From the NCBI GenBank assembly GCA_000002435.2, contig CM018793.1: DNA of 64,000 nt. One strand, written 5' to 3'. A model generated the notes under the pieces. The model was not told the origin of the DNA and did no database searches. It saw only the letters and a list, made by a program, of their open reading frames with translations. Position numbers and translations under genes: made by a program. Below, piece by piece: positions 5,146 through 64,000 of this stretch. Each line of letters opens with the position of its first letter. Positions within the stretch are counted from its first letter, which is position 1. The DNA is from Giardia intestinalis (taxonomy: Eukaryota).

Positions 5146-5165
5146 TGAGTACTATTCATTGGCGC

Positions 5166-5172
5166 ATTTACT
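5166..5172 (-). terminator. Putative Giardia polyadenylation signal AGTAAAT (AGTRAAY consensus) 13 nt downstream of the VSP stop codon
   Basis: The minus-strand sequence after the TAG stop (5185-5187) reads ATGTACTTAGATAGTAAATGCG. AGTAAAT matches the Giardia AGTPuAAPy motif at the expected distance. Confidence 0.4.
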
Positions 5173-5184
5173 ATCTAAGTACAT

Positions 5185-8100
5185 CTACGCTTTGCCTCTG
5201 CATAGGAACCACCAACACAAGAAGCCAACAAGACCACCTACAATAACTATCACAGCCACGGCGATGCCTGCAATGGCGCCGGTAGAAAGGCCACTCTTAT
5301 TGACGCTTCCGCCGTTGTCAGTGCCATCCGTCTTGACGTAGCAGATGACAGAGCCACCATCGCCGCCAGCTGGAGGAGCACAGCTTACGCAATCTTTAAC
5401 TCCAGTGATAGGCTTATTACCGTTAGGATCGTTTGTGTCGCATCTTACACATTTGGTTCCAACCTGATAATATCCTACAACGCAAGATGAACATGTGTTT
5501 GCATCGTTTGCACTAGTGCACGTTTTGCAAGCGGAATCACACAAAGGGCATACTCCAGCCGCACTAGGCTGAAGACTATTGGCGCACGTCTCGCACTTGT
5601 CGCCCTGACTGGCTAGCGTGCATATCTGTATGCCAGGTTGTCTGTCAGTCTTATAGCAGCCGTTGTCCTGGCGGAAGTACCCACTGGCACACGTAGTGCA
5701 CCCTCCCTTGCCATCTTTCACCTTGCACGCAGCTGCGCGGGCATTGTCTGCTGTACAGACCCCGTTGACGGGGACCTCCGTGGATGTGCTGCACTTCGAG
5801 CAATACTTTGTCCCTCCGATGGTGGCTCCGCAGGTCTCGCATCCGCTAGCTCCACTCTGGGGCTTGCACCCGTCCACGCAAGTACCGCTTGATGGACTGT
5901 TCTCATCCGTGTATTTGAGCATCTTCCCAGCAGGACAGGCCGTACACTTATCAGCACCCTCACCCTTACACTCTGCGCACGCATCGTTGCACCTCTTGCA
6001 TGTCTTTTTGCCACTATCGTCTCCGTAGTAGCCCTTGAGGGTCGTGCAGTCAGATACGCACTGACTAGTTGGGGTGAGGTAATCGCCGTCATTACATTCA
6101 GTGCAGGCCTCGTTCTCGGCCTTCGGGTTTGTGCAGTCCCTGCAGTTGGGCGTGTTGCACTTCCTCTCGACGCACTGGCTCCCGCTCAGAACGTAGGCGG
6201 GGTCGCAGCCAGTGCAGGCCTCGTTCTCGGCCTTCGGGTTTGTGCAGTCCCTGCAGTTGGGCGTGTTGCACTTCCTCTCGACGCACTGGCTCCCGCTCAG
6301 AACGTAGGCGGGGTCGCAGCCAGTGCAGGCCTCGTTCTCGGCCTTCGGGTTTGTGCAGTCCCTGCAGTTGGGCGTGTTGCACTTCCTCTCGACGCACTGG
6401 CTCCCGCTCAGAACGTAGGCGGGGTCGCAGCCAGTGCAGGCCTCGTTCTCGGCCTTCGGGTTTGTGCAGTCCCTGCAGTTGGGCGTGTTGCACTTCCTCT
6501 CGACGCACTGGCTCCCGCTCAGAACGTAGGCGGGGTCGCAGCCAGTGCAGGCCTCGTTCTCGGCCTTCGGGTTTGTGCAGTCCCTGCAGTTGGGCGTGTT
6601 GCACTTCCTCTCGACGCACTGGCTCCCGCTCAGAACGTAGGCGGGGTCGCAGCCAGTGCAGGCCTCGTTCTCGGCCTTCGGGTTTGTGCAGTCCCTGCAG
6701 TTGGGCGTGTTGCACTTCCTCTCGACGCACTGGCTCCCGCTCAGAACGTAGGCGGGGTCGCAGCCAGTGCAGGCCTCGTTCTCGGCCTTCGGGTTTGTGC
6801 AGTCCCTGCAGTTGGGCGTGTTGCACTTCCTCTCGACGCACTGGCTCCCGCTCAGAACGTAGGCGGGGTCGCAGCCAGTGCAGGCCTCGTTCTCGGCCTT
6901 CGGGTTTGTGCAGTCCCTGCAGTTGGGCGTGTTGCACTTCCTCTCGACGCACTGGCTCCCGCTCAGAACGTAGGCGGGGTCGCAGCCAGTGCAGGCCTCG
7001 TTCTCGGCCTTCGGGTTTGTGCAGTCCCTGCAGTTGGGCGTGTTGCACTTCCTCTCGACGCACTGGCTCCCGCTCAGAACGTAGGCGGGGTCGCAGCCAG
7101 TGCAGGCCTCGTTCTCGGCCTTCGGGTTTGTGCAGTCCCTGCAGTTGGGCGTGTTGCACTTCCTCTCGACGCACTGGCTCCCGCTCAGAACGTAGGCGGG
7201 GTCGCAGCCAGTGCAGGCCTCGTTCTCGGCCTTCGGGTTTGTGCAGTCCCTGCAGTTGGGCGTGTTGCACTTCCTCTCGACGCACTGGCTCCCGCTCAGA
7301 ACGTAGGCGGGGTCGCAGCCAGTGCAGGCCTCGTTCTCGGCCTTCGGGTTTGTGCAGTCCCTGCAGTTGGGCGTGTTGCACTTCCTCTCGACGCACTGGC
7401 TCCCGCTCAGAACGTAGGCGGGGTCGCAGCCAGTGCAGGCCTCGTTCTCGGCCTTCGGGTTTGTGCAGTCCCTGCAGTTGGGCGTGTTGCACTTCCTCTC
7501 GACGCACTGGCTCCCGCTCAGAACGTAGGCGGGGTCGCAGCCAGTGCAGGCCTCGTTCTCGGCCTTCGGGTTTGTGCAGTCCCTGCAGTTGGGCGTGTTG
7601 CACTTCCTCTCGACGCACTGGCTCCCGCTCAGAACGTAGGCGGGGTCGCAGCCAGTGCAGGCCTCGTTCTCGGCCTTCGGGTTTGTGCAGTCCCTGCAGT
7701 TGGGCGTGTTGCACTTCCTCTCGACGCACTGGCTCCCGCTCAGAACGTAGGCGGGGTCGCAGCCAGTGCAGGCCTCGTTCTCGGCCTTCGGGTTTGTGCA
7801 GTCCCTGCAGTTGGGCGTGTTGCACTTCCTCTCGACGCACTGGCTCCCGCTCAGAACGTAGGCGGGGTCGCAGCCAGTGCAGGCCTCGTTCTCGGCCTTC
7901 GGGTTTGTGCAGTCCCTGCAGTTGGGCGTGTTGCACTTCCTCTCGACGCACTGGCTCCCGCTCAGAACGTAGGCGGGGTCGCAGCCAGTGCAGGCCTCGT
8001 TCTCGGCCTTCGGGTTTGTGCAGTCCCTGCAGTTGGGCGTGTTGCACTTCCTCTCGACGCACTGGCTCCCGCTCAGAACGTAGGCGGGGTCGCAGCCAGT

Positions 8101-8451
8101 GCAGGCCTCGTTCTCGGCCTTCGGGTTTGTGCAGTCCCTGCAGTTGGGCGTGTTGCACTTCCTCTCGACGCACTGGCTCCCGCTCAGAACGTAGGCGGGG
8201 TCGCAGCCAGTGCAGGCCTCGTTCTCGGCCTTCGGGTTTGTGCAGTCCCTGCAGTTGGGCGTGTTGCACTTCCTCTCGACGCACTGGCTCCCGCTCAGAA
8301 CGTAGGCGGGGTCGCAGCCAGTGCAGGCCTCGTTCTCGGCCTTCGGGTTTGTGCAGTCCCTGCAGTTGGGCGTGTTGCACTTTTCGCTGCCGTTCTGCCC
8401 GCTGCGCTTTGCCAGCACTGTTACACAAACTAGGAGAAATCCTACCAACAT
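5185..8451 (-). CDS. Variant-specific surface protein (VSP) with about 21 tandem 37-aa Cys-rich repeats
   Basis: The 1088-aa ORF has an N-terminal signal peptide (MLVGFLLVCVTVLA) and very high Cys content dominated by CXXC motifs. The C-terminal hydrophobic TM helix is followed by the invariant VSP tail CRGKA. The repeat unit is CNTPNCRDCTNPKAENEACTGCDPAYVLSGSQCVERK. Confidence 0.9.
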   Translation of the reverse strand: MLVGFLLVCVTVLAKRSGQNGSEKCNTPNCRDCTNPKAENEACTGCDPAYVLSGSQCVERKCNTPNCRDCTNPKAENEACTGCDPAYVLSGSQCVERKCNTPNCRDCTNPKAENEACTGCDPAYVLSGSQCVERKCNTPNCRDCTNPKAENEACTGCDPAYVLSGSQCVERKCNTPNCRDCTNPKAENEACTGCDPAYVLSGSQCVERKCNTPNCRDCTNPKAENEACTGCDPAYVLSGSQCVERKCNTPNCRDCTNPKAENEACTGCDPAYVLSGSQCVERKCNTPNCRDCTNPKAENEACTGCDPAYVLSGSQCVERKCNTPNCRDCTNPKAENEACTGCDPAYVLSGSQCVERKCNTPNCRDCTNPKAENEACTGCDPAYVLSGSQCVERKCNTPNCRDCTNPKAENEACTGCDPAYVLSGSQCVERKCNTPNCRDCTNPKAENEACTGCDPAYVLSGSQCVERKCNTPNCRDCTNPKAENEACTGCDPAYVLSGSQCVERKCNTPNCRDCTNPKAENEACTGCDPAYVLSGSQCVERKCNTPNCRDCTNPKAENEACTGCDPAYVLSGSQCVERKCNTPNCRDCTNPKAENEACTGCDPAYVLSGSQCVERKCNTPNCRDCTNPKAENEACTGCDPAYVLSGSQCVERKCNTPNCRDCTNPKAENEACTGCDPAYVLSGSQCVERKCNTPNCRDCTNPKAENEACTGCDPAYVLSGSQCVERKCNTPNCRDCTNPKAENEACTGCDPAYVLSGSQCVERKCNTPNCRDCTNPKAENEACTECNDGDYLTPTSQCVSDCTTLKGYYGDDSGKKTCKRCNDACAECKGEGADKCTACPAGKMLKYTDENSPSSGTCVDGCKPQSGASGCETCGATIGGTKYCSKCSTSTEVPVNGVCTADNARAAACKVKDGKGGCTTCASGYFRQDNGCYKTDRQPGIQICTLASQGDKCETCANSLQPSAAGVCPLCDSACKTCTSANDANTCSSCVVGYYQVGTKCVRCDTNDPNGNKPITGVKDCVSCAPPAGGDGGSVICYVKTDGTDNGGSVNKSGLSTGAIAGIAVAVIVIVGGLVGFLCWWFLCRGKA
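6097..8392. repeat. Tandem array of a 111-bp unit, about 20.7 copies, apparently 100% identical, inside the VSP coding region
   Basis: A period of 111 nt was measured directly (the ggtcgcagcc landmark recurs at 6201 and 6312). The array is bounded by divergence at about 6097 and about 8392. It produces long artefactual ORFs in all other frames on both strands. Confidence 0.95.
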
Positions 8452-8667
8452 TAGCCGGGTTCGTATGCCACTGCTCTTCTGTCAGGCTGATGTGTTGCTG
8501 CGAGCAGTGAGAGACAGTCACTTTTGCTCCCTTAACCAGTTGGACCGGAGAAGGACAAGATAGGAGCACACCCACCGGAGGCCAACTGATAGTGCGGTTC
8601 CCCCTGGCTTCCATAGGAACAGGACCAGTAAGGACCAGACTCAGATCGCACCTCTCTTGTGGAGTGA

Positions 8668-9852
8668 TTGTTCAGGGTGCACTCCTGTACATTGCTGTCA
8701 CTGTATCACTGGGCCCACCTGCAGGTGCGCTCAGAGGCCCCACGGGCAAGCCGCGCCCACTTCCCAACCACCGCGGAGGGTGTCCTGGGAGACGCTAGTA
8801 ACAGTGCAGTTAGCAGCTTTGCAGGGCCGATGGGCGTTTGGGGAGCGTGCTCAGCAGGGGCCCTCAGCGTTATCTACTCTCTCAGGGGATGCCCCTACCT
8901 CGTCGTGAGAGAGATCCGGCTTGATGGCCTGGATCAGCACAGTGTAGATGCCATTCGGCGCAGGCTGACCGCTCTTCTAGGCACCCTTCACCCAGACGTT
9001 CTCAAATACCACCAGGTACTTACAGACGGCAACACGATCCTTGTTGTTACAGACCGCTGCTGTGGAGACCTCCGGCAGTTCATCACCGACTACAGGGACA
9101 TTCACGAACCTATTCCCAGCAAGCTGATGCTCTCCCTTCTGGGGCAGCTGGCTGGCGCCCTTGCCCACCTCCACGGGTTCAGCAGAGGTGCCCACAGCGG
9201 CCTGCCCTCTAGCGTTGTCCTCGAGCCCGACAACGTCCTGTTCGCTGGGGACGGGCGGCGTGTTGTTCTTGCAGACTTCGGGTTCTGCGAGGGCATATCG
9301 AGCGGAGCTGCGAAGGCTGGCGACCCCGCGTACATGGCCCCCGAGACACTCCTCTGCGGTGACATGACCCAAGCATCCGACGTCTGGAGCCTCGGGGCCA
9401 TCGCATACGAGCTCGCCACCCTGAGGAAGCCGGACTTCCTAGGGGACAGGGATCCTGCAGAGGTCTTCGTCGATGGGTGGAGGCCGGACCTGAGCGGTAT
9501 CGCAGACGACCTCGCAAGGAGCGTCCTTGAAAGAATGCTCGTCCTCGATCCCGCCGAGAGGCCGACTGCCAGAGAGCTCGCCCGTCTGCTTCAGATGGCC
9601 AGTGATTCTACTGATGAACAGGAGGCCCAAGACACAAGGCTAAAGGAGGTGCGCGCAGCCTTTGTAGAAGTCTTGAACGCTCATCTGCATTCGCTATTGC
9701 CTTGGGGGAACCACAAGGTCCTTATCTGTCAGAACTGGACGATATCCGACCTTCTGATTTCAGATTCTGGGTCTCAGCTGGTAAACGAGCGAGAGACTGC
9801 CGGCCTGGGGCGGCGGCGGCTCGCGTGGAGGACCTGTTCAGACAACAGCTGA
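8668..9852 (+). CDS. Nek-like pseudokinase domain protein (paralogous to the kinase domain of 1495..5145); possibly a fragment of a disrupted Nek-ankyrin gene
   Basis: The 394-aa ORF carries ADFGF and MAPE motifs. Its C-lobe is clearly homologous to gene 1495..5145 (RPDFLGDRDPAEVFVDGWRPDL...LVLDPAERPTARELARLLQ versus RPNFTRTGDPKSTFISGWRPDL...FVLDPGERPTAKELCDLLQ). The beta3 Lys is replaced (LVVREI) and the HRD motif is absent (LEPDNV). Confidence 0.55.
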   Translation: MFRVHSCTLLSLYHWAHLQVRSEAPRASRAHFPTTAEGVLGDASNSAVSSFAGPMGVWGACSAGALSVIYSLRGCPYLVVREIRLDGLDQHSVDAIRRRLTALLGTLHPDVLKYHQVLTDGNTILVVTDRCCGDLRQFITDYRDIHEPIPSKLMLSLLGQLAGALAHLHGFSRGAHSGLPSSVVLEPDNVLFAGDGRRVVLADFGFCEGISSGAAKAGDPAYMAPETLLCGDMTQASDVWSLGAIAYELATLRKPDFLGDRDPAEVFVDGWRPDLSGIADDLARSVLERMLVLDPAERPTARELARLLQMASDSTDEQEAQDTRLKEVRAAFVEVLNAHLHSLLPWGNHKVLICQNWTISDLLISDSGSQLVNERETAGLGRRRLAWRTCSDNS

Positions 9853-10068
9853 CAAACCAACCAGAGGAAGCAGAACGAATTCTTTTGTTCACAGCTTGCC
9901 TGACGCCACGGCCGAAGGTCACCCCACTGCGTCTTGTTACACACGTAGGGGCGACGGAAGGAATCCAAGGCGTGCAGTCCGCTTATGATGCGCTATCTGG
10001 ATGCGCTGCAAGAGGCCCAGGAATTGCAGGCGTGCTGCCACACGGGCTCTATGTGACCCGGAGTAAAA

Positions 10069-10971
10069 ATGTTGTCTATGGATGACTTAGATCAATTCCT
10101 TCAGGAGTGCGACTGCGCCTTACTCCTCATGTCTGAGAAGGACGCAAGTGAAGAGGGCGCAGGAAACCCAACTGAGTCTTCACAAACAGATGATGAAGGC
10201 AGCGTGGACGAGGACGGCGTCACCACACTTATGGAGGCAGCTAAGAGGAACGACGTGAAGGCGGTGAAGCGCTACATCCCTTATCAGGCAAGGATGGTGG
10301 CGAGGTTTGTTACGGCGGGGAGAGTAGAGATATACGATGGGACGGCCCTGATGGTCGCTGCGGTGCTTGGACACACCAGAGTGGTGAAGCTGCTGATGAG
10401 GTGCGAGGGCGGCATGAGGAGCAGTAATGAATGGACAGCCCTCATGTGGGCGGCACTTTTTGGCCGCACCGAGGTCGTGAGACTGCTCCTGGATGTTGAG
10501 GGAGGCATGCAGAAAAACAGAGGTTTCACTGCCCTCGTGCTTGCAGCAGAATGTGATCATCTGGACTGTGTCAAGTTGCTACTGGAGAAGGAGAGGGACA
10601 TAAGTGGCGTACTTGCCATCCATATGGCTAATAGATGGAATCACTCCGAGGTAGCATCTTTTCTCCAAAGTAAGGGTATTGTAGATCCATACTTACAGAT
10701 GCAGCCCAGGAAGCTTGTGAGTGAACTCGCCTACTTGCTGATCATATCACAATGTTTACCCTGTTTCACTGAGATTAGTTTGCTAGCTGCTGTCCAAGTA
10801 AATCCCCCATGCGAGTCACCGCCCTGGGCAAGCGGGTACCTCCCGCCCCTGCATCGGTTGAGATCCAGAATCCGAAATCTGAGATCGGATGTAGCGATTC
10901 CGGTGGGAGAAGAAGAAGGAACTTTGCTCTGCCTCTCGGGAGTCCCTGCCGCTCCTCGCGGTGCCCCCTAG
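10069..10971 (+). CDS. Ankyrin-repeat protein (21.1-like), possibly the truncated or degenerate remainder of a Nek-ankyrin gene
   Basis: The 300-aa ORF is in the same reading frame as 8668..9852. Its N-terminal 200 aa hold about 4 clear ankyrin repeats (TTLMEAAKRNDVKAVKRY..., TALMVAAVLGHTRVVKLLM, TALMWAALFGRTEVVRLLL, TALVLAAECDHLDCVKLLL). The C-terminal 100 aa are low-complexity and probably not genuine. Confidence 0.45.
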   Translation: MLSMDDLDQFLQECDCALLLMSEKDASEEGAGNPTESSQTDDEGSVDEDGVTTLMEAAKRNDVKAVKRYIPYQARMVARFVTAGRVEIYDGTALMVAAVLGHTRVVKLLMRCEGGMRSSNEWTALMWAALFGRTEVVRLLLDVEGGMQKNRGFTALVLAAECDHLDCVKLLLEKERDISGVLAIHMANRWNHSEVASFLQSKGIVDPYLQMQPRKLVSELAYLLIISQCLPCFTEISLLAAVQVNPPCESPPWASGYLPPLHRLRSRIRNLRSDVAIPVGEEEGTLLCLSGVPAAPRGAP

Positions 10972-12790
10972 GACTCCCCCTTCCTTTGGCTAGCTTGGGT
11001 CAGCTCCGTCTGACATTTATTGAGCACCTGCTGTCTCGGGTCTTGCGTCAGTCGCGGCGATCTGGTCTCCACGTGGCCCGGGGCCCTGGTGTTCCGTGAC
11101 GAAGATCGCGCCCCACGACCCCGGGTGTCTACCCCGTTTCTTGGGGTGCCTCTTCGTCTTCTCATGAAGCGATCATCTGTCCCGAGCATGATCGGAGGGT
11201 GCGCTCCTTGTATGCCTCTATCTTGGGGTTGTGGTACGCATTCGTGGATGCCAGCGGAGTACTCCCATGCGTTGTGTCGGGGGAGAAGTATGGCCCTCTG
11301 CTCATGGATCACAGTGCACTCTTGTGGGTGGTCCGTCATCCAGTACGAGACCGCGTCGACGCTCACCCTGTGCAGTGTGTCTGGCTCAGTGACGTGTGGG
11401 CTGGTCCATCTGCACTGCACAGCACACCTGGGGGAATGATTCGGTCTGTCGAGGCATCAGTCCAGGGCCACCTCTCTGAGAGGCGTCGTCCGAAGCATCA
11501 GAAGCGATCAGGACCGGTTCACCGCTTGGTCGTCTCTCTACAACCGGCGCCTGTCCACTCAAGGATGTCAGGCACTGCCAGTTGCTGCAGCAGACACCCG
11601 GCAGGTGGCCCAGGTCACCACTCTTCGGTACGGTCAGGATCAATCCGCCTCTGTTAGCCAAGCACCCCAGGAGCCCCATCTCTTGTCGAGGGACTCACAC
11701 GGGTCACGTGTGGGTCCATCTCGACAAGCGGGGCGAGTGATTGGTGCCATCACTGGCTTGGGCCCTCCGTTGCCCTGGGAGCTCCTTGAGACCGGCCAGG
11801 AAGGAGGCCCCCTGCCCCTCAGTGCTCCTACACTTGTCAATGTTGACTGTCAAACCATATCGTTTCGCTAGGGCTGCCACCTCTGTGGCTATCCCCGTCG
11901 CGTCATTGTTGCTACTATGGAAGATGGGTGTGTCGTCGGCATGGGCAGTGAGTGGAGTATCTCCTTCAGCTCCTGGTGAGCAGGTTCTGTCCCCCGCAGC
12001 ACAGAAGCATGCTCAGGGCCCCGAGGGACCGAGTCCAGGGGTGCAGCGTGTTACAGCCGGAGGAAGGCCTCGACGCAACTCCTCGGACGAGGCACACTCG
12101 CCTGGCAGAGGCCGTCTACTGTTAGGGTGCTCGTTATGTCGAGCGAGGCCACCGTGGCCATCAGTCTGCATCTCCCTGCGCCATGCGAACACCACCATGT
12201 GCAGTCAGTAGAACGCAGTCTGCTCGATCTCGAGGAAGGCTAGTGTCTGGGTCTCCAGGGGACTCGGGACTACCTTGTGGAGCGCATCATGATCGTCCAC
12301 CGATTGCACTTGCCCTGCCTCGTCCTTGGGAAGAGGGAAGAACAAGAGTTCTTCTCCCGCCGGAGTCGCTTGACACTCACCTTCGAACTCTGGATCTGGA
12401 TCTCGGTTGGTGAACGAGCGAGGGACTTGCCCAGAGAGGCGATGACTCGCATGGGAAGATCACTCAGGTAACAGCACTGATAACAAAGTAAATTATCACG
12501 CCAGAGATGCAATTGATTCGCCTAGTTCAAAAGCTTCAGGGGCAGCGTGTGCGGTTCGAGTTGAAAGCTGGCGGAATGATTGAGGGAACTGTCGCCCTGG
12601 TTGATGCGACCTTTGTTGTGCACCTTTCTCAAGCGTCCTACACTCCGCGGGGCGCAACGACCGCTATCTGTCATCCATTCGTCGTGCTACGTGGAGCAGC
12701 TATCTGTAGCCTCTCTCTTCCGGGCACGTTTGACACGGACACGCACCTTTGCGCCTTACGGACAGAGTACAATCGGGGTCCAAAAAATAG

Positions 12791-39260: not shown

Positions 39261-40148
39261 TCACATGACGTGCCAGAGGACGCAGCAGGCCTCGGCGAGG
39301 TTCTTGGACATCGTCTTCCTGATGTCCTTGGCTAAGTTCCCGTAGTGGGCGTAGAGGACCTTGCACTGCTCCGCCTGGTCGTAGAGCATCCCGGTGATGC
39401 GGCAGCAGCGGTCGGTGTCGCCCTTCTTCTGGCAGGCCAGGCTCAGGAGGTAGGCGGCGCCTCGGGCGGGGCAGTGGAGCGTCGCGTTGCAGCAGCAGAG
39501 CGCGAGCTCGTCGTCGCCCTTGTAGGCCTCGATGAGGGCCTGCTCGATCGTCTTCTTGGCGATGTTCTCGAACGCCTCGGAAATCTGCTTCCACTCGCTG
39601 GGGACGGTCGTGCCGAGGAGGCGGATGACCGTGTCCGTGTCCGGGTGCTTGACGCCGATCAGCGCGGTCTTCAGGGCCTCTGCATCACCCTGGACGTTGT
39701 TGCGGGCGGACCTGCAGAAGGCAAGCCAGGAGTTCACCATGCGGGCCCAGACGGTCTTGGAGCCGATCTCCTTCCTGAGCGTGGACTCGAAGTCGTCCCC
39801 GAAGAGCTGGTGGTACCTGTCCTTGACCCTTGCGTAGATCTCAGGGGTCGTCGTCAGGAGCGTGTCCGTGAGACACCTCTCGTCGTTCCCGCCCTTGAAG
39901 GCCTTCTTGATCAGCCTGCAGCGGACGTCGATCTCGTCGTCGAGGACGATCATCATGAGGTCCTTGTAGTCCCCGTTCTTGAACGAGGCGTCGAGGTACT
40001 CGGAGGTGGTCTTTCCAGTAGCCGCCCTGAACGCGGCGTGGATCTCGGCGCGCTGCTTGTCATTGAAGTCGGCGACGCTCCTCGCAAGCCCGTCCATGTC
40101 CTTGGCGTCGATGAGGGTCTTGATCTCGGTAGCCTTCGCTGCAGCCAT
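39261..40148 (-). CDS. Alpha-giardin (annexin-homologue cytoskeletal protein)
   Basis: The 295-aa ORF has four annexin-like repeats. Its C-terminal block RITGMLYDQAEQCKVLYAHYGNLAKDIRKTMSKNLAEACCVLWHV parallels alpha-1 giardin RITGMMVDKCLGAKHAYKIYGDMGTDIERCFDKRMAPILRTLWRV. The length is identical to alpha-giardins. Confidence 0.88.
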   Translation of the reverse strand: MAAAKATEIKTLIDAKDMDGLARSVADFNDKQRAEIHAAFRAATGKTTSEYLDASFKNGDYKDLMMIVLDDEIDVRCRLIKKAFKGGNDERCLTDTLLTTTPEIYARVKDRYHQLFGDDFESTLRKEIGSKTVWARMVNSWLAFCRSARNNVQGDAEALKTALIGVKHPDTDTVIRLLGTTVPSEWKQISEAFENIAKKTIEQALIEAYKGDDELALCCCNATLHCPARGAAYLLSLACQKKGDTDRCCRITGMLYDQAEQCKVLYAHYGNLAKDIRKTMSKNLAEACCVLWHVM

Positions 40149-55939: not shown

Positions 55940-57652
55940 TTATTCTGGATTACTAGAGGATTCCCAGCCCCGTCCCCTAGGTGTACTGTTACCGCTGGTG
56001 CTGCCAGAGCCAACTGTCCCGCTTTCTCCCAGTGAGCTTCCGCTTCCAAGCATGTGCTCCATGGGCTTAGCCTCAGAAAGTTGCTTGCCTGTAGCCGCTG
56101 TTTTCCTGCTATCCTCGATTTGTGCAACGTTTGGATCACTCATTCGACTCAGTATCTTATACCGGCACACACTATAAGCAAACATACAGATCCCAATGAT
56201 CGCTGAAATGGCGTCTCCGATTGGAAATGGAAATAGGTAGTCGCCCTGGTCTCCGTTCACTGACGCTGTAATGATGAGTATGACTATGGTTGTCACAGTC
56301 CTGGGTAGTGGCAGTAGGATGCTCAGTAGTGAGCGACCCTCAAGCTGAGCAAGCACAGTCATGATGCAGTACGCCGGCATGAGGGGAGGAGTAATGAAAG
56401 CAAGCTTTCCTGTTTGCTTGAGATACTTCTGGAGAAGGATCACGTCGTCAGTGGGCTTGCGAATTAGAGGTTGGACAGCCAAGAGCAGAGGCTCAGCAAG
56501 GGGCCCCAAGATAACGCATACAAGCGTGCTCGCTATGGTCATAAACATGAATGCAAACAACATGGCCTTGTACATACGCGAGTACTTTCTGAGTACTAAG
56601 TTATAGTTTGTAGTGATTGCAAATCCTGATAGTAGCCCATTGTTGATGACATTGGCTGCCTCACGCATGAGTAGATAGTTATAAAACGCTATACGCCGAG
56701 CATGCATAGAGGTACGGTCTGTGTACTTAATGCCGTAGAGTATGTTGACCAGTGCTACTAACACATCATCTATGGATTCAAGAAACCAGTGCAGCATCCC
56801 GATAAGGAAGACCTTTAGTAATATGCGACCATTTAGTGGGAACAGCCGCTTTGTAGAAAACTTGAGCCCACCTTTCAAGGCTACTTGAAGAACCGTCTTC
56901 CGGAAGACGAGCATTGTCAACCAGATGGACACGAACAGATGAGCTATTATGTTTCCGGTTCCAGCCGCTATCAACCCTCCTTCGTTGGCCGTTGCTCCGT
57001 ACATATACGCTATATAATACGATATGGAACAAAAGAGTACAGAAAGCACAGAAAGCAGCCCACTGCGTACAATATCTACAAAGGTACGATTCTCCAGACG
57101 AACAAATGGAGACATACCTATAGTCACGACATTGAAGAGCGTGGACATGCCTGTCATCAGGGCGAAGTAAGGCGTAGAGAAGCTTATTGCAGATGTTGCA
57201 GACATCGTTACAAAACAAGCAAGGGATTGATACCAGCTAGTGAAGAGCAAGGGAATAAGGAGAGCCCATATCGCCGCCATAAAGAAGTAATGAGAGTAGT
57301 AAACGTTGGCGATTTGAATTTGCATTTGCCCCAGTGCACGCCCCGCAAATCTGGCCGATGCTTTGGCGAGGGCAAGGATAGGGTGCTGGCAAAGGAGAGA
57401 AATAATCGGTTGATATGTTGCAAAAAGGGAAGTGGATCGAAAGCCTGAATAATGAAACACCTGAACGTAAATAACCATCTTCGCTACAACGGCGAGGAGG
57501 GAGCTAACAATAGAAGCGCCAGCATGCCTCCAGAGAAGACTGTGCACAGGCTGGGTGGATAGTTGGAAGATTTTCCCATCGACCATGCTGGATGCCACTG
57601 AAGATGAAAAGTCAGAGCTAGCATCATCGGAGCTGTCGTAGTCGTCTGCCAT
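55940..57652 (-). CDS. Polytopic membrane protein, MOP/MATE-flippase-like (about 12 TM)
   Basis: The 570-aa ORF has an acidic N-terminus followed by at least 10 hydrophobic helices. The C-terminus is Ser/Gly-rich. The family assignment is tentative. Confidence 0.55.
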   Translation of the reverse strand: MADDYDSSDDASSDFSSSVASSMVDGKIFQLSTQPVHSLLWRHAGASIVSSLLAVVAKMVIYVQVFHYSGFRSTSLFATYQPIISLLCQHPILALAKASARFAGRALGQMQIQIANVYYSHYFFMAAIWALLIPLLFTSWYQSLACFVTMSATSAISFSTPYFALMTGMSTLFNVVTIGMSPFVRLENRTFVDIVRSGLLSVLSVLFCSISYYIAYMYGATANEGGLIAAGTGNIIAHLFVSIWLTMLVFRKTVLQVALKGGLKFSTKRLFPLNGRILLKVFLIGMLHWFLESIDDVLVALVNILYGIKYTDRTSMHARRIAFYNYLLMREAANVINNGLLSGFAITTNYNLVLRKYSRMYKAMLFAFMFMTIASTLVCVILGPLAEPLLLAVQPLIRKPTDDVILLQKYLKQTGKLAFITPPLMPAYCIMTVLAQLEGRSLLSILLPLPRTVTTIVILIITASVNGDQGDYLFPFPIGDAISAIIGICMFAYSVCRYKILSRMSDPNVAQIEDSRKTAATGKQLSEAKPMEHMLGSGSSLGESGTVGSGSTSGNSTPRGRGWESSSNPE

Positions 57653-57720
57653 CTACCCACAAAGACAAAGGGCGATCTAGATCCCAAGTAGTTTTTTGAA
57701 GGTGCAAAACGACTTCAGAT

Positions 57721-58287
57721 TCACTCTACTCTAACGCCGAGCTCAGTCAGCTCTTTAATAACTATGTCGACAGCATCCTTGTCAACTGGCCTGGAGCCTT
57801 CGCGGAATACACGCACTTCGAACCCTTCTCGGCGGGCGTCGATAGCGCTGTAACGAACACAAAAGTCGAATGCCAAACCAACTATGTCGCATGTCTTTAT
57901 GTGGTGCTCTCGGAGAAATTGTGCTAGTTTGGTTCCCCCGAAGCATGAGTAAGCATCCAGATCCACCTTTGTCCCTTTCCGGATGCGTACATCTGTTTTC
58001 TCTACCACTAGATCCGGGTGCAGCTGGGCCCCTGGGGTGTCCTGTACACAGTGGTCTGGCCACAGATAGTCATGATCGCCATATGGAGTGAACGGCTGCT
58101 TATTATATCGGGAAGCAAAAGAGCAATGATGTGGAGGATGCCAATCCTGAGTGATGACGACCATGTCGTAATGTCTACTTTGGCGTAACTGATTAATAAA
58201 GGGAATAACCTCTGCCCCATCGTTGATGCCCAGGGCTCCTCCTTTGCAGAAGTCGATCTGCATATCGATTATCAATAGGGCGGCCAT
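57721..58287 (-). CDS. Nicotinamidase/pyrazinamidase (isochorismatase family)
   Basis: The 188-aa ORF has ALLIIDMQIDFCKGGALGI (catalytic Asp), VVITQDWHPPHHCSF (metal-binding His), DAYSCF (catalytic Lys region) and the catalytic Cys in LAFDFCVRY. Confidence 0.85.
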   Translation of the reverse strand: MAALLIIDMQIDFCKGGALGINDGAEVIPFINQLRQSRHYDMVVITQDWHPPHHCSFASRYNKQPFTPYGDHDYLWPDHCVQDTPGAQLHPDLVVEKTDVRIRKGTKVDLDAYSCFGGTKLAQFLREHHIKTCDIVGLAFDFCVRYSAIDARREGFEVRVFREGSRPVDKDAVDIVIKELTELGVRVE

Positions 58288-59655
58288 TTATTTTCTAGCT
58301 AAATTTTGTATAGTGACCTTTCCATTGAGAGGACTCGTTCATAGCCCATTAAAAGCACAATATAAGAACTTCTTGGGTCAATAAGCAGTAGAATTCCATC
58401 TTGTAGCCTTTAAAACAGATATACCTCAAATACGCTCTATGTTAGTATTTAGAGCCAGATATTATAATATTATATCCTGGCACAAGAAATCCACCATGAC
58501 CGTTCCCAAGAGATGAATTGCAAGGTCACAACAATAAGTCTGTTAATAGAAACATAGGTAGATCAGCAGTAGGAGCCGTGATATAGTACTATGTAAAAGA
58601 CACTTGGTTAATGGTGACCATTGATGGCGCCATAAACAGGTGCTTCTAGCACTTAAAGAACGTCATCGTCTTGGTTGTAAGGGATATTGAGTTCTCGTAG
58701 CAGCAGCAACAACTCAGAAGCACGGACCCAATACAAAATTCATGAGAGATTTACTGCTTTACTTTCCCAACACATTATCGCCCATTAGTGCCCTTGTGGT
58801 CATTGATACGTAGCGCATAATATCTGCATCAGCACTCTGTGGATGAGGTAGCTGCTGCTGAGCGGGCACACCCAGAGCCACTGTCGCGTAAGATGCCAGC
58901 AAGATCCGCAGCTCCAGAGCACACTGCAATCTGGCGACTGATTTGGTCATGCCGCTCCTTTGTCCGCTGGAAACTCGGCCGGGAGCGACAGAGACCACGT
59001 CGGGAGAACCCAGTGGGAGGGGGTAGGCAGGGCTTCCTGCGCCACGAGGGGAGCCGCCGCAGGAGGACGCGCAGACACGCACGCCAGGCCACAGTAGACA
59101 CGCGGACGCCCCTGTAGACCGGGCCGGCAGCAGGCGTCCGCAGAATCCGCGCCAGAGCCAGCTGCTCAAAAAACTGGGCAGCCTCTGGTCGTGTGCAGGC
59201 CTTGCAGAGCACTGCGGCCCCCGACACTCGGCGACCCCTCTCAGAGCGGAAGACCCCGCGGGCCGCAGGCAGCAGCTCGTCGTCGGCGATGCCCCGAACG
59301 AGGGGGACGGCCCTAGCCTGCCCGCCTCCGCAGAGCTCCGGGCATCTGCAGACAAACCGGGGCTGCGCAGGGTGCGGCTCTCCCTGGCGGCCGAGGGCAG
59401 GGGTCCCCGGCAATACCAAAAAACTCCGATCAATACATCAGCCCCGGCGCCGCCGTGTGCAAAGCAGTCTGTTCTGTGTGGCGGCCTAAGCCAGCTCGTA
59501 CTGCAGCGATGGCCCGGGTGAGGGCGCCCTGCTCGCCCGACGGACCGGGGCAGGCAGGCAACAAACACCCGCTAAAGCTTTTATGCAAGGCCTGTACATA
59601 TTTAATTTCACATTATTCGTTGGTCTGTTTTTAGTTTTATCGCCGCTTCTATCGG

Positions 59656-60465
59656 ATGGGCTCTGGGGCAATGACGGCGGAGACGCGCGCCTCCGTTCTG
59701 CTCGAGCTCGCGAAGCAGGTCGTCGCTGCCCGGCGGCTGGAGGAGACGGCCGAGAGCCTCGCGCGGCGGCCGCTGCTCCTCCACCGGCACGTGCTCCGGA
59801 CGGCCATCGACTGGAAGAAGATCGCCCGCGCCCTGTCCGAGGACCGGAGCAGGATCTACCACTGGTACCGCGAGACGCACTCGCGGAGCATCCTCAACGT
59901 GAAGATGACCGGCGAGGACCGCAGGGCCATCAAGGCGATGATCATCGCCGGGGTCAGGGACCGGAGCATCCTGGGCCCGGACTTCTACCGCAGGGTCCAC
60001 GAGCGCTTCGGGGCGAAGTATCCGCGCCAGGAGCTGCGGATGACGTACAACAACGCGCTCCGCACCCAGGACGTCCGCGCCGCCCTGGAGGAGCACGGGG
60101 TGGTGCTGCCGCGCCGCACATACGGCCCGAGGGCGGCCAAGCAGGAGGAGGAGGCATCTCCTGTGGCGGCCACTCCCCCGCCCCCCTGCGTTTTTGGTTG
60201 CGCCGCGCCTCCGCTGGTGCCGCCCGTCGGGGGGCCGGTCTTTGTGGCCCCGGGCGCGGTCTCTGCGCTTCTGCCCCCGCACGCGCCGGGATGCCTCGTC
60301 CTCGCCCTCCCACCCGGGGTCGTTTCTGGGCCCGGCGTCCTCCCGCTCCAGACGGGCCAGGGTCTCCTTGGGCCGCCCGTTGCATTCGCATGCGTGCCAT
60401 GCTTCCCCCCTGCGGGCTACGGGGGCGTGCCTGGGTGCGCCGATACATACCCCAGCAAGGGCTGA
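59656..60465 (+). CDS. Hypothetical protein with Myb/SANT-like segment and Pro/Gly-rich C-terminal tail
   Basis: The 269-aa ORF is preceded by the only AT-rich tract in a GC-rich block (59585-59650). It carries a Trp-spaced helix-turn-helix-like segment (TAIDWKKIARALSEDRSRIYHWYRETH). Competing ORFs in the other frames are Arg/Gly/Pro low-complexity. Confidence 0.45.
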   Translation: MGSGAMTAETRASVLLELAKQVVAARRLEETAESLARRPLLLHRHVLRTAIDWKKIARALSEDRSRIYHWYRETHSRSILNVKMTGEDRRAIKAMIIAGVRDRSILGPDFYRRVHERFGAKYPRQELRMTYNNALRTQDVRAALEEHGVVLPRRTYGPRAAKQEEEASPVAATPPPPCVFGCAAPPLVPPVGGPVFVAPGAVSALLPPHAPGCLVLALPPGVVSGPGVLPLQTGQGLLGPPVAFACVPCFPPAGYGGVPGCADTYPSKG

Positions 60466-62458
60466 AGACTGGAGACCCCGGCTTGCTTGGTGGTTGGCGA
60501 AGAGTGGTCGGTAGGAGCAGCTAATAGTTGAAGTCCTGGTCAGTGGCGAGACAGTCATGCCTAGAGCGTGCAGCATGCTCAACCACGGCACAGCGCAGGG
60601 CCCACCAGACGTAGCTTACACATCGTTGAAGAGACCACACACAGCAGACGAAGGCAGGGCTCTCCCATGTGCCCAGACGACTCGAACACCGCGGTCTGGG
60701 CCAACGATCTACCAGACAGGCCCGTCCGGTAACAGGCGACTGAATGCTCTCTGGGCCGTGAGCTAGGGCTGATGCGCAGCTGGCCGGCCACGACATTCAC
60801 CCTGGCTGGCCCTCTGTCTTCACGCGCCGACACGCCAAGGAGCTGCAGGCCGGCTCTCGACACAGACCGATGCTTGTCTCCTTGTTAGCAGGCCATGAGT
60901 GGGAGAGTGGACGCGCTCTGTAAATGGCATGCTCGATCCGCTCGTTCGGTGAAGCTTTTATCAAGAAGAGATGCGATGATTGTCTCACCAGGCGTACTAT
61001 TGTCTGCGCACCTGTGCCTCAGATGCGGCCACCACGGCGCAGCTGCATCTCCGATCATCCTGGGCACACCTCCTGGCACGGGCAGGTGCGCCGGAGGGGT
61101 GTACTGCCCACCGCCGAGAAATGGATGAACTCCCTTACCCAGGAGCCGGCTGACCACTAGCCGTGCCCAGCAAACCCCAATAAGCAGGCCTGCTGAGCCA
61201 ACCCATCCAAGAAGCTGTGTATCCGGAAGAGCTTCGCGTCGAATGGCTCCTTGATTAAAGAAGCTGGCATCCAGCGCGGCATGACGACTATCCGCCTGGT
61301 GCTGATCTGTCTGCTGGGGAACACGCAGACGCCCTAAGCTCCGTGTGAGCCTATGTTCAAAGCGTCCTTCACTGGCAGGAGATTCAAGGAACTAGGCGTA
61401 GATAGGAAGAGCATTCCCCACTGGTGCCACGAAGTACCGGTATGCTACCTGGCTACACTAATGGCAGCGAAGAGCACGAGAAGGTCCCAGGGCCTCATCG
61501 AGCGGGTCTGCCCCTAGCAGGCCCAAGTAGACGCTCTCTCCAGCAGTGTACAAGAAGCCCGGGAGGGAGTGCTCAGGCTGGAGCTGCGGCGTTGCTGGTA
61601 CAGGCTGTCCTTACTGAGTGCATCCCTCAGCGTCCAATAAGTGGAAAAGTGACCGGAGCTGGGTGCGCCTGCCATAGGCATCTCTTGGCAATAACGTACA
61701 GGTATCGCTGCAATCTAGTGTGCATCCTCTAGTGCCCCACTTCCCCCTGTGGTCAGTGTATCTCTAGGGAAGGCAGGCCCTTTTGAAAAGGTATTGACCT
61801 GGGATCATGAAGGAGCGCGGGGCACTGCACTGGGTCTGTACACAGGCCAGAGGCCCGTAGCCGTTGGCCAGCAAGGTCCGGGTGCGATGGTCGAGTGTTC
61901 GTCCGTCAGAGCCCTCAGGATGGTGGCCAGAGGACAGGAGCGACGCCGGTCGGTTATCGACGCAGAACGTGCAAGGCCCCACAGGCGAGGAGCACAGAAG
62001 AACACAGGGAGCGTGGGGCCACTGGCAACCCGTAACTTTTTATATCTTGGCGGCCGGTCTCAACACTTCGTAGGTGCAGATATGAGAAGCTGGGCCGAGT
62101 GATCTGCTGGTGGAGGGACCGACACACACTTCCTCAAGGGTTCTGCCATGGGTGACGATGATGGTAGGCCGCACCACTGCAGGTTCGTCCCTTTGCACTG
62201 TAGCAGAGCCAAGGCATATCGGTCTACTGTTATGTGACGCCCTTTTTCAAGATAGGTTATGATTGTACAATCTGATTCAAGGTGTTATACTATTCTAATG
62301 AGGTCTTCATAACATGAAGCATTGCAAAAGTAATCCTTCAAATTCACCCTCAGAAATCAGCATATTTCTTACAGCTTAAGAAGTTTTCAACCACGCGTGA
62401 AACTATCGAGCGTGTAATTGTTTAGTTTATAGAAATTGAATTTACCAATTTAAACGCC

Positions 62459-64000
62459 ATGGCAAATCTCGTTCTGAACCCAGCCGGGGAGGCCAGGGCG
62501 CGCACGCAGTATCGCTGCTTCGAGTACCTGAGGCTCCTTGTAGCTGCGGCGGGGCACGCTTTCGACGCGTACGGACTCGGAGACAGCAACCGAGACCGCT
62601 ATCTCGGCGACTGCATCCAGCGCACAGACATCTTGGAGCTCGTCGTCTGTGCTGCAGGGTGCGCAGCAGCCGGGCCGTCCAGCGCGCCTCTGGATGCCGA
62701 TTCTCCCAAGATGGACTTGCACCTGCCAGAGGCCATGGGAGCTAGCGGAGCGGTCCTCCCAGCAGCGGACCCGGCAGAGGCCCACCGTCGCTACCAGAAC
62801 TACTGCACTGAGATGAACAGGGTGCATCCGGACCCGCTGCACCCCGCGCCCGAACTGGCGACCACGGAGACATACTTCAAGCTCGTCGATCACCTTTTCT
62901 CCTCTTTGGTCTATGTGGAGAAGCTCATGGGCACCCCGAAGATCGACTGGAACGCAGACCACTTCACCCTGGACTACAAGCCCTGTCCAGACGAGGTCAA
63001 GCTGGTCATCAACCTTGACGCAGAGGCCATTAGCGCCATGGACAACAATAAGGATCTTCAGAGTAAGCCAAACTGGTGCGCAAACAGGGTATGGTACGTC
63101 ATGATTTTGAGCTTCATTCTTGGCTTTTCACTGAGTCTTGTGGCTCTCACCATCCCATTTTACCTAACATACCTGGGGGCTAATGCATCTCAAACAGCGA
63201 ATCTACAATCCTTCTTCAACCTCACACAGCTGTTCTTCTGTCCGCTCTGGCTTTGGCTATCGGAGATAATTGGCCGCAGGCCAGTTTATATAGTTCTCTT
63301 TGCCGGATACGCGGTTACCACTGGATTGACTGGACTTGCACCGATCATCTTCCAAGCAAGAGACAATTCTAAGACACACTCTCAGGACCAAATCAACTAC
63401 ATCCTTGGAATGCGCTTCGCCACAGGTATTTTCGCGTATGCCATTCCTATTGGTTTTGTTACTGTTGCTGATCTCGCTAGCCCCCGCGCGCGTCCAATGG
63501 CCCTGATCGCAATCAATGTCATGACTTTAATTGGCACAGCAATAGCTTCTATAATAATTGCTTTTATCTTCACCATTGGAACCTATACAGGTGACAATGT
63601 GAAATCATTCCTTCATACATTCTATCTTGCAATTGCTCTGTTAGTGGCCGGCCTCGTTTTCTCCTGCTTCTTCAAGGAGTCTTCTGCAGGCGTTATAGCC
63701 CGCAAAGCTGCCAAGAAGATGGGCAAAACGGACTCCCAGGCATATAAGGCCAACGTAAGGCGGGATAGCTTCTGTGTGACATTCAAAGATATTCTGAAGA
63801 ACAAAGAGCTAATTCTGCTCTGGTTTGCATATGTCTTCCAGATCTTCTGTACTCAGCTTCCTGTTGCCACTAGGGGTTTCCTAGTTGCGAAGTTCTACGG
63901 GTTTACAAGTGCACAGGAAGCTAAGCAATTGAACGCTCTGTCAGATATCGTTGCGATCGCTATTACTGTCTGCTTTATACTTGGCTTGACCCGCATCATA
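62459..64000 (+). CDS. Major facilitator superfamily transporter with about 200-aa N-terminal cytosolic extension; 3' end beyond the window
   Basis: Manual translation from ATG at 62459 runs to the window end with no stop (at least 514 codons). The MFS signature LWLWLSEIIGRRPVYIV (G-x3-GRR between TM2 and TM3) is present with multiple TM helices. A 230-bp AT-rich promoter tract lies immediately upstream. Confidence 0.65.
   Translation, partial: MANLVLNPAGEARARTQYRCFEYLRLLVAAAGHAFDAYGLGDSNRDRYLGDCIQRTDILELVVCAAGCAAAGPSSAPLDADSPKMDLHLPEAMGASGAVLPAADPAEAHRRYQNYCTEMNRVHPDPLHPAPELATTETYFKLVDHLFSSLVYVEKLMGTPKIDWNADHFTLDYKPCPDEVKLVINLDAEAISAMDNNKDLQSKPNWCANRVWYVMILSFILGFSLSLVALTIPFYLTYLGANASQTANLQSFFNLTQLFFCPLWLWLSEIIGRRPVYIVLFAGYAVTTGLTGLAPIIFQARDNSKTHSQDQINYILGMRFATGIFAYAIPIGFVTVADLASPRARPMALIAINVMTLIGTAIASIIIAFIFTIGTYTGDNVKSFLHTFYLAIALLVAGLVFSCFFKESSAGVIARKAAKKMGKTDSQAYKANVRRDSFCVTFKDILKNKELILLWFAYVFQIFCTQLPVATRGFLVAKFYGFTSAQEAKQLNALSDIVAIAITVCFILGLTRII

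Follow-up and report, generated by a model that had tools for sequence, protein, structure and literature searches.

In Giardia intestinalis WB, islands of high GC content are found at VSP regions and at synteny breaks (Franzen et al. 2009, PMC2723961), and the regions around VSPs are gene-poor and variable (Xu et al. 2020, PMC7000408). GC-enriched genes are also reported from gene-conversion tracts of roughly 3.3 kb between AI and AII (PMC12669663). The block considered here, 58760-62220 of a 64,000-nucleotide stretch of contig CM018793.1 (assembly GCA_000002435.2; the whole stretch is called the window), belongs to a known kind, the high-GC islands at synteny breaks in Giardia, and carries a member of an undescribed gene family. 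It resembles the known islands in having a GC content above the genome average, sharp edges, few genes, duplicated segments, raised variation between isolates and a loss of assemblage synteny exactly at its position. Unlike them it has no VSP, NEK, HCMP or Protein 21.1 gene, its one gene being from a different multicopy family. (The window does have a classical VSP/NEK/ankyrin island, at 1.5-12.7 kb.) We consider it probable that the block is a copy of a dispersed multicopy segment around the gene GL50803_00114778, with non-coding flanks, exchange between loci and a synteny-break setting. DNA between about 58846/58893 and about 61305 would travel with the gene to other loci, 61306-62220 being specific to this one. 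Ectopic recombination or gene conversion would swap sequence between copies at different chromosomal sites, and through such exchange the 5′ flank and CDS would evolve in concert within assemblage A and the 3′ flanks would be mosaic. The island would be positioned exactly at a gene-order break between assemblages, its high GC presumably being the known compositional signature of variable Giardia islands.

The GC content of 58760-62220 is 63.0%, against 49.5% for the remaining window, with a peak of 0.72 in 500-nt windows over the CDS; a first-pass annotation had called the block markedly GC-rich, and sliding-window GC agrees. Its edges are abrupt. An AT-rich spacer outside the repeated unit (58288-58759, 38% GC) separates it from the start of the nicotinamidase gene, and another (62221-62458, 34% GC) forms the right edge, upstream of an MFS transporter gene that is also called, as MFS_1, in DH. 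Between these are an upstream non-coding flank (58760-59568, 65-68% GC; 65.3% for 58760-59580), a conserved AT-rich tract, the CDS (71.5%) and 59.1% GC DNA at 60466-62220. The latter divides into a flank common to other copies of the unit, with indels (60466-61305, 60% GC), and ORF-poor DNA limited to this locus among the loci examined (61306-62220, 58% GC). The GC-rich DNA on the two sides of the gene, about 0.9 and 1.75 kb, to which the AT-rich spacers add, is indeed unusually long, as had been pointed out, when set against a mean intergenic length of 477 bp in WB (PMC7000408). GC-richness is not unique to the block: a VSP/NEK cluster at 5.8-12.8 kb has as high a GC content, and the best 3.46-kb window, at 6.2 kb, with VSP, NEK and ankyrin genes, also has 63.0% GC. 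The VSP gene there carries a perfect tandem repeat (111-bp x 20.6), and 39.1-39.8 kb, an annexin gene with a GC3 of 0.94, also exceeds 0.6 GC. The block has no similarity to any other part of the window.

Gene order between assemblages breaks at the edge of the block. Homology to P15 contig L019 stops at 58297, to be followed there by sequence 76.5% similar to window positions 12455-11782, and that to the B-like contig L013 stops at 58310. DH (AII) is collinear with the block, 61306-62220 included, and it is with DH that the compositional boundaries can be seen to be boundaries of variation as well: AI versus AII divergence jumps 5-6-fold exactly there. Differences between WB and DH number 3/472 at 58288-58759 and 0/238 at 62221-62458, with 33/915 substitutions and 22 indel columns at 61306-62220. 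Overall, non-coding DNA of the block differs at 116/2650 positions (4.4%) versus 23/2911 (0.8%) for flanking sequence (OR 5.7, p=1e-18), and its excess over third codon positions of neighbouring genes, 13/702, is also significant (OR 2.4, p=0.001).

The open reading frame at 59656-60465 is exactly GL50803_00114778, beside nicotinamidase KAE8306159 on a 4.02-Mb contig, and is, as first described, the only convincing gene of the block. It is an intact gene under constraint. The CDS has a GC-phase spread of 0.54 and an extreme GC3 (0.96), which accounts for most of its high GC. Its N-terminal helical domain (59656-60129, plus strand, residues 1-158) diverges among assemblage A copies by 0.6-1.3%, versus 5-6% in the flanks, and its fast-evolving, disordered Pro/Gly-rich C-terminal tail with the stop codon (60130-60465, plus strand) by 3.5-7.9% with in-frame indels, though a short motif near the C-terminus is kept across paralogues. 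Directly 5′ of the ATG is the AT-rich tract (59569-59655, plus strand), with 6/87 differences from P15 where the adjacent flank has 24%, and four private differences among the four A copies. The part of it that had been singled out earlier, 59585-59650, is 64% AT, and the tract is a putative Giardia-type initiator or promoter.

The family comprises at least seven genes in WB, their proteins 94-97% identical. The six others in the same 90% cluster are GL50803_0061066, 0060974, 00d60974, 00103981, 00137682 and 00112150, and members are spread over contigs of 1.54, 1.97, 2.76 and 4.02 Mb. Orthologues or paralogues are present in assemblages A, B and E, falling into three subfamilies with additional distant relatives. 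A library of 1.84 billion proteins yielded 79 relatives, those inspected sharing the domain, with a low-complexity tail after it. An exact-pattern scan of JGI metagenome contigs gave no match, and neither did literature searches on all the family gene IDs, the lone match to ‘114778’ being a coordinate string; the family is undescribed and uncharacterised in the literature.

What the protein may do is suggested mainly by its predicted structure. A conserved helical domain of some 155-158 residues (pLDDT >90 for residues 8-150) precedes a disordered proline-rich tail (pLDDT <50). The domain has nine helices, in three-helix units plus an extra long N-terminal helix and a C-terminal helix, and as a whole has no solved counterpart; a three-helix bundle within it, with a helix-turn-helix, is superposable on solved Myb/SANT repeats. 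The DNA-binding proteins to compare are those with Myb/SANT (homeodomain-like three-helix) domains, such as Cdc5/CEF1, the R2R3-MYB WER, c-Myb and SNAPC4. A ‘W-x2-IA...R-x5-W’ motif lines up with the core of the Myb repeat, and a DNA-binding-type domain ahead of a disordered tail is a further likeness. On a reading of the alignment only, W53 and W70 are invariant and F110, F118 and Y131 stand in place of Trp in the second three-helix unit. The Trp spacing of 17, not the 18-19 of Myb/SANT repeats, and the lack of an obvious first aromatic position are points of difference. Pfam has no family for the full protein at E<=1 (Myb_DNA-bind_6, at best E=0.01 and in 2/11 members, is below threshold), hhalign to c-Myb R2R3 gives E=0.15 with a probability of 0.4%, a PDB search by sequence finds no relative and Foldseek no global match. 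Of the earlier Myb/SANT-like label, then, the superposable three-helix fold is retained, and what fails is every sequence-based test and the global Foldseek comparison. From its domain layout the product may be a sequence-specific DNA-binding regulator.

The GC-rich DNA on both sides of the gene is non-coding. Against P15 the upstream flank has 24% substitutions and many indels of 1, 2 and 4 bp, without codon phase. A minus-strand ORF of 269 aa is present at 58759-59568, as originally listed, though it is not the longest mechanical ORF, those of 313 and 327 aa overlapping the true CDS. It was rejected as a gene since its frame is not conserved in other copies (only about 200 codons are open in the other four) and substitutions are not codon-phased, mismatches being lowest at ‘third’ positions. 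In the downstream flank, 60466-61305, mismatches are likewise without codon phase, and for 38 of 46 indels the length is not divisible by 3. Pfam has no match for the flank ORFs or the six frames of 60466-62230. Neither the five longest downstream ORFs, concatenated, nor the ORFs of 102 and 117 aa in 61306-62220 have a match among 5.8 billion protein clusters.

That the flanks are eroded protein-coding genes, the remains of a locus once made up of ordinary, closely packed genes, is unlikely on this evidence. In the upstream flank 270 codons are open in a row, a length that 98.8% of dinucleotide shuffles fall short of, and a weak three-periodicity of GC, with a spread of 0.20-0.28, is detectable at 61.0-61.5 kb only. 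The WB annotation lists 306 pseudogenes (PMC7000408), and one copy of the unit elsewhere, that in L008, illustrates that copies can decay to pseudogene fragments. However, several upstream frames are open together on both strands, as is expected of DNA with 65-70% GC, and the absent Pfam and cluster matches, unphased substitutions and frame-breaking indels also count against former genes. In this respect the suggestion of eroded genes made at the outset holds only in a loose sense: flanks are decaying and the L008 copy is eroded, but for the flanks in the window itself there is no sign of a coding past.

Giardia intestinalis has multiple copies of the segment at dispersed sites, and the block is one of them. 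The DNA-level copy structure is drawn from DH, P15 and one metagenome, the other six WB copies standing outside the comparison. The unit spans about 58846/58893 to about 61305 and turns up in other isolates at different loci: at a RING-finger locus in L005 and at a kinesin locus in both DH (L015) and P15 (L006). Its left boundary is at 58846 for the DH kinesin locus and at 58893 for L005; a boundary at 58892/58893 is common to L005 and the first P15 alignment, and short-read contigs break at 58817-58905. To the right, 60466-61305 is homologous to L005, L015 and L008, and 61306-62220 has no match in any of the three. L008 has an eroded, 5′-truncated copy beside a paralogue, and a reverse-transcriptase gene a few kb away, though the block has no similarity to the RT-adjacent DNA there. 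The copies in L007, L008 and L015 adjoin VSP, NEK or ankyrin genes.

Divergence between copies does not follow position. In the upstream flank any two of the copies in the window (WB chr5), its positional orthologue in DH, L005 and L015 differ by 5.0-6.2%, the positional orthologues among them being no exception, and each of the four is 25-26% from the P15 L006 copy. L015 is the positional orthologue of L006, the kinesin neighbourhood being 86.5% identical over 8.3 kb, yet the two copies are 26% apart. Paralogues within a lineage are thus closer than positional orthologues between lineages, and the nearest relative switches along a copy. L015 is itself mosaic, with a 5′ part that matches L005 at 96% identity and a 3′ part that matches L008 at 90%, and the WB and DH chr5 copies are mutually closest only downstream of the CDS. 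In the protein, the F179 and P239 variants are common to the WB chr5 copy and WB 0060974, and M187 is found in both DH copies. Segments with close paralogues are more divergent between WB and DH than those without (OR 1.8, p=0.004). As read from these alignments, the pattern indicates ectopic exchange and concerted evolution of the copies. As WB (AI) is regarded as asexual, exchange, if any, would take place in mitosis or between nuclei. Part of the star-like pattern could be imitated by a burst of duplication near the AI/AII split combined with locally faster mutation. Exchange cannot account for all of the island, since no paralogous donor is seen for 61306-62220, which is GC-rich and 3.6% divergent.

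Parallels are to be found in concerted multigene families, e.g. those of yeast subtelomeres, where paralogues are likewise closer to each other than positional orthologues of different lineages are; as in such families, the Giardia copies are mosaic, with a coding core more homogenised than the flanks. A GC-rich unit of a few kb also recalls the AI/AII conversion tracts (PMC12669663), from which it differs in that exchange is here deduced from sequence patterns and recent substitutions run S>W. The latter is pertinent to the origin of the GC-richness. Private substitutions among the four A copies comprise 68 S>W and 27 W>S, implying an equilibrium GC of about 0.47, so that present-day input erodes the GC of the block, and changes polarised on the WB and L005 lineages comprise 10 W>S and 18 S>W. 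The W>S excess predicted for GC-biased gene conversion is found in neither set. Young variants reflect mutation bias, however, and the S>W excess is compatible with GC-biased gene conversion acting on fixation. Most plausibly, the GC of the flanks is a legacy of such conversion, tied to frequent exchange. (C>T dominates the private changes; RIP-like or CpG hypermutation was rejected as per-site C>T is about equal to T>C and CpG is not enriched, at 16/68 versus 32% of S sites.)

Dispersal of near-identical copies invites comparison with transposition, and the unit could be an unrecognised mobile element, autonomous or not, with a Myb-like gene and non-coding ends formed by the GC-rich flanks. 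Some transposons encode DNA-binding Myb-like proteins. The at least seven near-identical copies on four chromosome-sized contigs, the boundary at 58892/58893, the contig breaks around it and the truncated copy in L008 would all fit, and the Giardia non-LTR retrotransposons GilM, GilT and GilD similarly are multicopy with a decayed 5′-truncated copy at one locus. In contrast to these, the unit has no reverse transcriptase or endonuclease and its ends are not fixed: left ends are unequal (58846 versus 58893) and no right end is shared, downstream parts being mosaic and 9-37% divergent. Terminal repeats, inverted or direct, are not convincingly present (a 9-bp inverted repeat close to the two ends is no more than chance would give and is not conserved in L005), and neither the flank ORFs nor six frames of 60466-62230 yield a transposase, integrase or reverse transcriptase. 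Both A and E have a copy at the kinesin locus, pointing to an old copy there rather than a new insertion, and the family is a conserved, cellular-type one with distant relatives. We therefore regard a mobile element as improbable. More speculative, and quite improbable as matters stand, is that the family encodes a DNA-binding factor with a functional tie to the GC-rich variable islands, for instance one that marks or regulates them or promotes the recombination that moves and homogenises them. If so, gene and flanks together would propagate themselves as a cassette, a novel type of gene-bearing repeat in a genome to which no more than three families of retrotransposon are otherwise attributed.

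A non-coding RNA locus, raised as an option in the first-pass annotation, is very doubtful. The flanks, on this view the source of at least one functional RNA, are ORF-poor and GC-rich, and the L005 and L008 copies still align at 68% identity over about 2 kb of downstream flank, but that identity is uniform (0.61-0.76), with no conserved islands and 46 indels, and the downstream part differs from locus to locus. Over 57500-63000 Rfam (Rfam 15) gives no match at E<=1, rRNA included, ARAGORN finds no tRNA in the window, and MFE z-scores for RNA folding are only -1.5 and -1.8, the latter for 60466-61305. Foreign DNA, whether laterally transferred, viral or rDNA-derived, was a further suggestion and is hardly credible: though the composition is sharply unlike that of the neighbours and the edges are abrupt, the gene family spans assemblages A, B and E in three subfamilies, with distant relatives of the same architecture among its 79 library relatives, the ATG has an AT-rich tract of Giardia type in front of it, DH is collinear over the block, the window contains a native VSP/NEK island just as rich in GC and, in keeping with the initial remark that the composition does not resemble Giardia rDNA, there is no rRNA or other Rfam match.

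With the block taken as a copy of a dispersed segment subject to exchange between loci, some consequences are practical. The long spacers that look ‘empty’ really are non-coding DNA and not missed genes, and GL50803_00114778 and its six near-identical WB relatives are best treated as one multicopy family. Since short-read contigs break at the unit, the family has a bearing on the mapping of reads, on expression estimates and on SNP calling. A putative DNA-binding regulator, strongly conserved and with such an extreme GC3, merits study of its expression and binding. The locus is also a small and clearly delimited case of dispersed copies exchanging sequence in AI, a lineage supposed to be asexual, and, given the jump in divergence at its boundaries, ‘introgression’ or conversion tracts in GC-rich regions may in part be exchange between paralogues.

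The block at 58760-62220, between the nicotinamidase and MFS transporter genes, is GC-rich as first described, at 63.0% GC against 49.5% in the rest of the window. In 500-nt windows GC is 0.39-0.48 at 58.3-58.5 kb, climbs to 0.62-0.73 over 58.75-60.5 kb, remains at 0.57-0.61 as far as 62.2 kb and falls off to 0.47 beyond, with AT-rich spacers on both sides (58288-58759 and 62221-62458; 38% and 34% GC). The ORF content is also as the first-pass annotation had it, with a 269-aa ORF at 59656-60465 (+), the remaining ORFs overlapping one another on the two strands and reaching at most 269 aa in the flanks as well (58759-59568, -). The block is not, however, unique in the window, where two other stretches are GC-rich: the highest-GC 3.46-kb segment, near 6.2 kb, equals it at 63.0%, and GC exceeds 0.6 also at 39.1-39.8 kb. 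The former lies in a classical Giardia variable cluster (1495-12670), matching the block in GC level, that comprises a NEK kinase with ankyrin repeats (1495-5145, -), a VSP gene of 1088 aa (ORF 5185-8451, -; Pfam VSP, E=1e-92), a second NEK kinase (8668-9852, +) and an ankyrin protein (10069-10971, +), after which come ~1.7 kb of ORF-poor DNA of 58-61% GC. A perfect tandem array within the VSP gene (6099-8382; a 111-bp unit x 20.6, 100% matches) accounts for a level stretch of 65% GC and for long but spurious ORFs on either strand. At the small third peak is an annexin (alpha-giardin-type) gene (39261-40148, -; GC3 0.94), an illustration that GC-rich spots in the Giardia genome can arise from extreme GC3 alone.

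The product of the ORF at 59656-60465 is identical at every residue to GL50803_00114778 (XP_001708440.1 / KAE8306160.1) of WB, on its 4.02-Mb contig next to the nicotinamidase KAE8306159.1. This CDS is real and constrained, and its flanks are non-coding. GC3 in the N-terminal domain is 0.96 and the GC spread between codon phases 0.54, against 0.01-0.28 in the rest of the block, where the maximum, a modest 0.20-0.28, is at 61.0-61.5 kb. Relative to the copy in P15 (assemblage E), substitutions amount to 6.6% in the CDS, 7% in the AT-rich tract before the ATG and 24% in the upstream flank (58760-59568), where they follow no codon phase and are accompanied by sixteen indels of 1-4 bp.

Eroded genes, a non-coding RNA locus and DNA of foreign origin, the explanations initially offered for the flanks, are mostly unsupported. 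The upstream flank does have a 270-codon open stretch, longer than in 98.8% of shuffles, but this extends only ~200 codons in the other four copies, with several frames open simultaneously and the lowest mismatch count at its ‘third’ positions. Downstream, ~2 kb can be aligned at 68% identity between a metagenome copy (L005) and a copy at a paralogue locus of DH (AII; L008), with identity uniform at 0.61-0.76, mismatches without phase and 38 of 46 indels not multiples of three. Pfam found no match in six-frame translations of the downstream flank or in the flank ORFs, and the five longest ORFs downstream had no hit when searched against proteins; Rfam had no match in the block, and RNA folding z-scores are -1.8 and -1.5.

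What was called a Myb/SANT-like gene merits the name at the level of fold, sequence methods giving no or marginal signal. The protein has no Pfam family at E<=1 and no sequence relative in the PDB; of 11 family members, two match Myb_DNA-bind_6 at E=0.01, and hhalign against c-Myb R2R3, though it pairs the invariant ‘W-KK-IA...R-IYHW’ of the family with the Myb ‘W-xx-IA...RW’ core, gives a probability of 0.4%. An AlphaFold2 model built on the family alignment has a confident nine-helix domain at residues 8-146 (pLDDT mostly >90) and a disordered tail. Foldseek returned no significant global match for the full model or the domain alone. The presence of Myb/SANT-like three-helix units in the model is accepted as a statement about predicted fold rather than about membership of the Myb/SANT family, and the product is a putative DNA-binding protein.

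The gene has many relatives. Six other genes of WB share its 90%-identity cluster (GL50803_0061066, 0060974, 00d60974, 00103981, 00137682 and 00112150; on contigs of 1.54, 1.97, 2.76 and 4.02 Mb), with proteins 94-97% identical to it. Outside the cluster, P15 and GS (assemblage B) have orthologues or close relatives, and there are two paralogous subfamilies at ~43% identity (e.g. DHA2_153000/GLP15_4189 and GLP15_4271). Searching a profile against 1.84 billion representative proteins turned up 79 relatives (E<=1e-3), and the ones inspected share this N-terminal domain, with a long low-complexity tail after it. Literature searches for genes of the family found no mention in the papers covered. 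The DH contig AHGT01000079.1 has an intact orthologous 269-aa ORF, 11 amino acids different from WB, at which no gene was called, in what looks like an annotation gap.

It is not the gene alone that is repeated. Window 58893-60849 matches L005 at 93-95% identity, the match reaching ~61305 with indels, and there the unit adjoins a RING-finger gene rather than the nicotinamidase. Because DH is matched at 99.9% identity by another contig of that sample, L005 is apparently of AII type. In both DH (L015) and P15 a copy adjoins a kinesin gene, and in GS one lies between VSP and NEK genes. Against L015 the unit has its left edge at 58846, against L005 at 58893, the downstream parts differ strongly among copies, and the unit ends have no terminal repeats above chance; such variable end points and lack of terminal repeats speak against a fixed-terminus transposon. 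The ends of short-read contigs with this nicotinamidase, at 58817-58905, are what the border of a repeat or of very GC-rich DNA would be expected to produce. At L008 (AHGT01000031.1, 7149-9353) a decayed, 5′-truncated copy lies 270 bp past the stop codon of the paralogue DHA2_153000. It consists of the C-terminal tail, including stop-codon context, and ~2 kb of DNA further downstream, and matches the L015 downstream flank at 90% identity.

DH is collinear with WB over 57629-64000 at 97.06% identity, with differences concentrated in the block and steps in divergence falling at its compositional edges. Divergence is 0-0.7% in the nicotinamidase, both AT spacers and the MFS gene start; 5.1% in the upstream flank, 4.6% in the AT-rich promoter tract, 0.8% in the N-terminal and 6.2% in the C-terminal CDS, 4.5% in the shared downstream part (60466-61305) and 3.6% in the locus-specific part (61306-62220). 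Non-coding DNA of the block (116/2650) differs more than flanking sequence (23/2911; OR 5.7, p=1e-18) and than neighbouring third codon positions (13/702, 1.9%; OR 2.4, p=0.001), and segments with close paralogues diverge more than those without (OR 1.8, p=0.004). Just 1 of 158 third positions differs in 59656-60129, against 1.9% in neighbouring genes and 5-6% in adjacent flanks, so that synonymous sites of the N-terminal domain are either strongly selected or preferentially homogenised. Homology to a P15 contig (ACVC01000230.1, 1-1040) ends at 58297, next to the nicotinamidase start, and the sequence beyond resembles window 12455-11782 in reverse (76.5% similarity); homology to a B-like contig ends at 58310. 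The P15 junction suggests, from alignment, a rearrangement linking the window's two GC-rich regions; a ~46-kb inversion between them would give this junction, though a paralogous family member could lie there instead. At 472 bp the spacer preceding the nicotinamidase gene (58288-58759) is unusually long; it is near-identical in WB and DH and not alignable with the P15 or B-like contigs.

Several comparisons indicate exchange between copies. Four assemblage-A copies (that of WB chr5 in the window, its DH positional orthologue, L005 and L015) are 5.0-6.2% apart pairwise in the upstream flank, paralogues being as close as positional orthologues, and all are 25-26% from the P15 kinesin-locus copy. 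This includes L015, its positional orthologue, given 86.5% identity over 8.3 kb of adjoining sequence. Within-lineage paralogues so much closer than between-lineage orthologues are the signature of concerted evolution. L015 is itself a mosaic, 96% identical to L005 in 5′ flank and CDS and 90% to L008 in the 3′ flank, and some protein variants are common to copies of one genome rather than to orthologues (F179 and P239 in the WB chr5 and WB 0060974 proteins, M187 in the two DH copies). Past the CDS, the chr5 orthologues are nearest each other (5.5% and 2.5%) and 9-37% from other copies; therefore only 5′ flank and CDS are homogenised.

Given such exchange, GC-biased gene conversion would be a natural mechanism for the GC-richness, and we infer it as the most plausible cause. 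Among the four A copies there are 68 private S>W substitutions and 27 W>S; C>T predominates, no CpG enrichment was found, and the implied equilibrium GC is ~0.47; this direct test does not show biased conversion and is not decisive because young changes mainly reflect mutation bias. High-GC islands occur at VSP sites and WB/GS synteny breaks (PMC2723961), regions around VSPs are gene-poor and variable (PMC7000408), and AI/AII gene-conversion tracts of ~3.3 kb contain GC-enriched genes (PMC12669663). The block fits this class of high-GC variable regions, as a GC island that is native, multicopy and recombining and that lies where synteny breaks. At its centre is a gene, intact and uncharacterised, whose product is a putative DNA-binding protein. 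Its flanks should not be mined for genes, the GL50803_00114778 family should be annotated as multicopy, and paralogue exchange should be looked for in GC-rich ‘conversion tracts’ between sub-assemblages.
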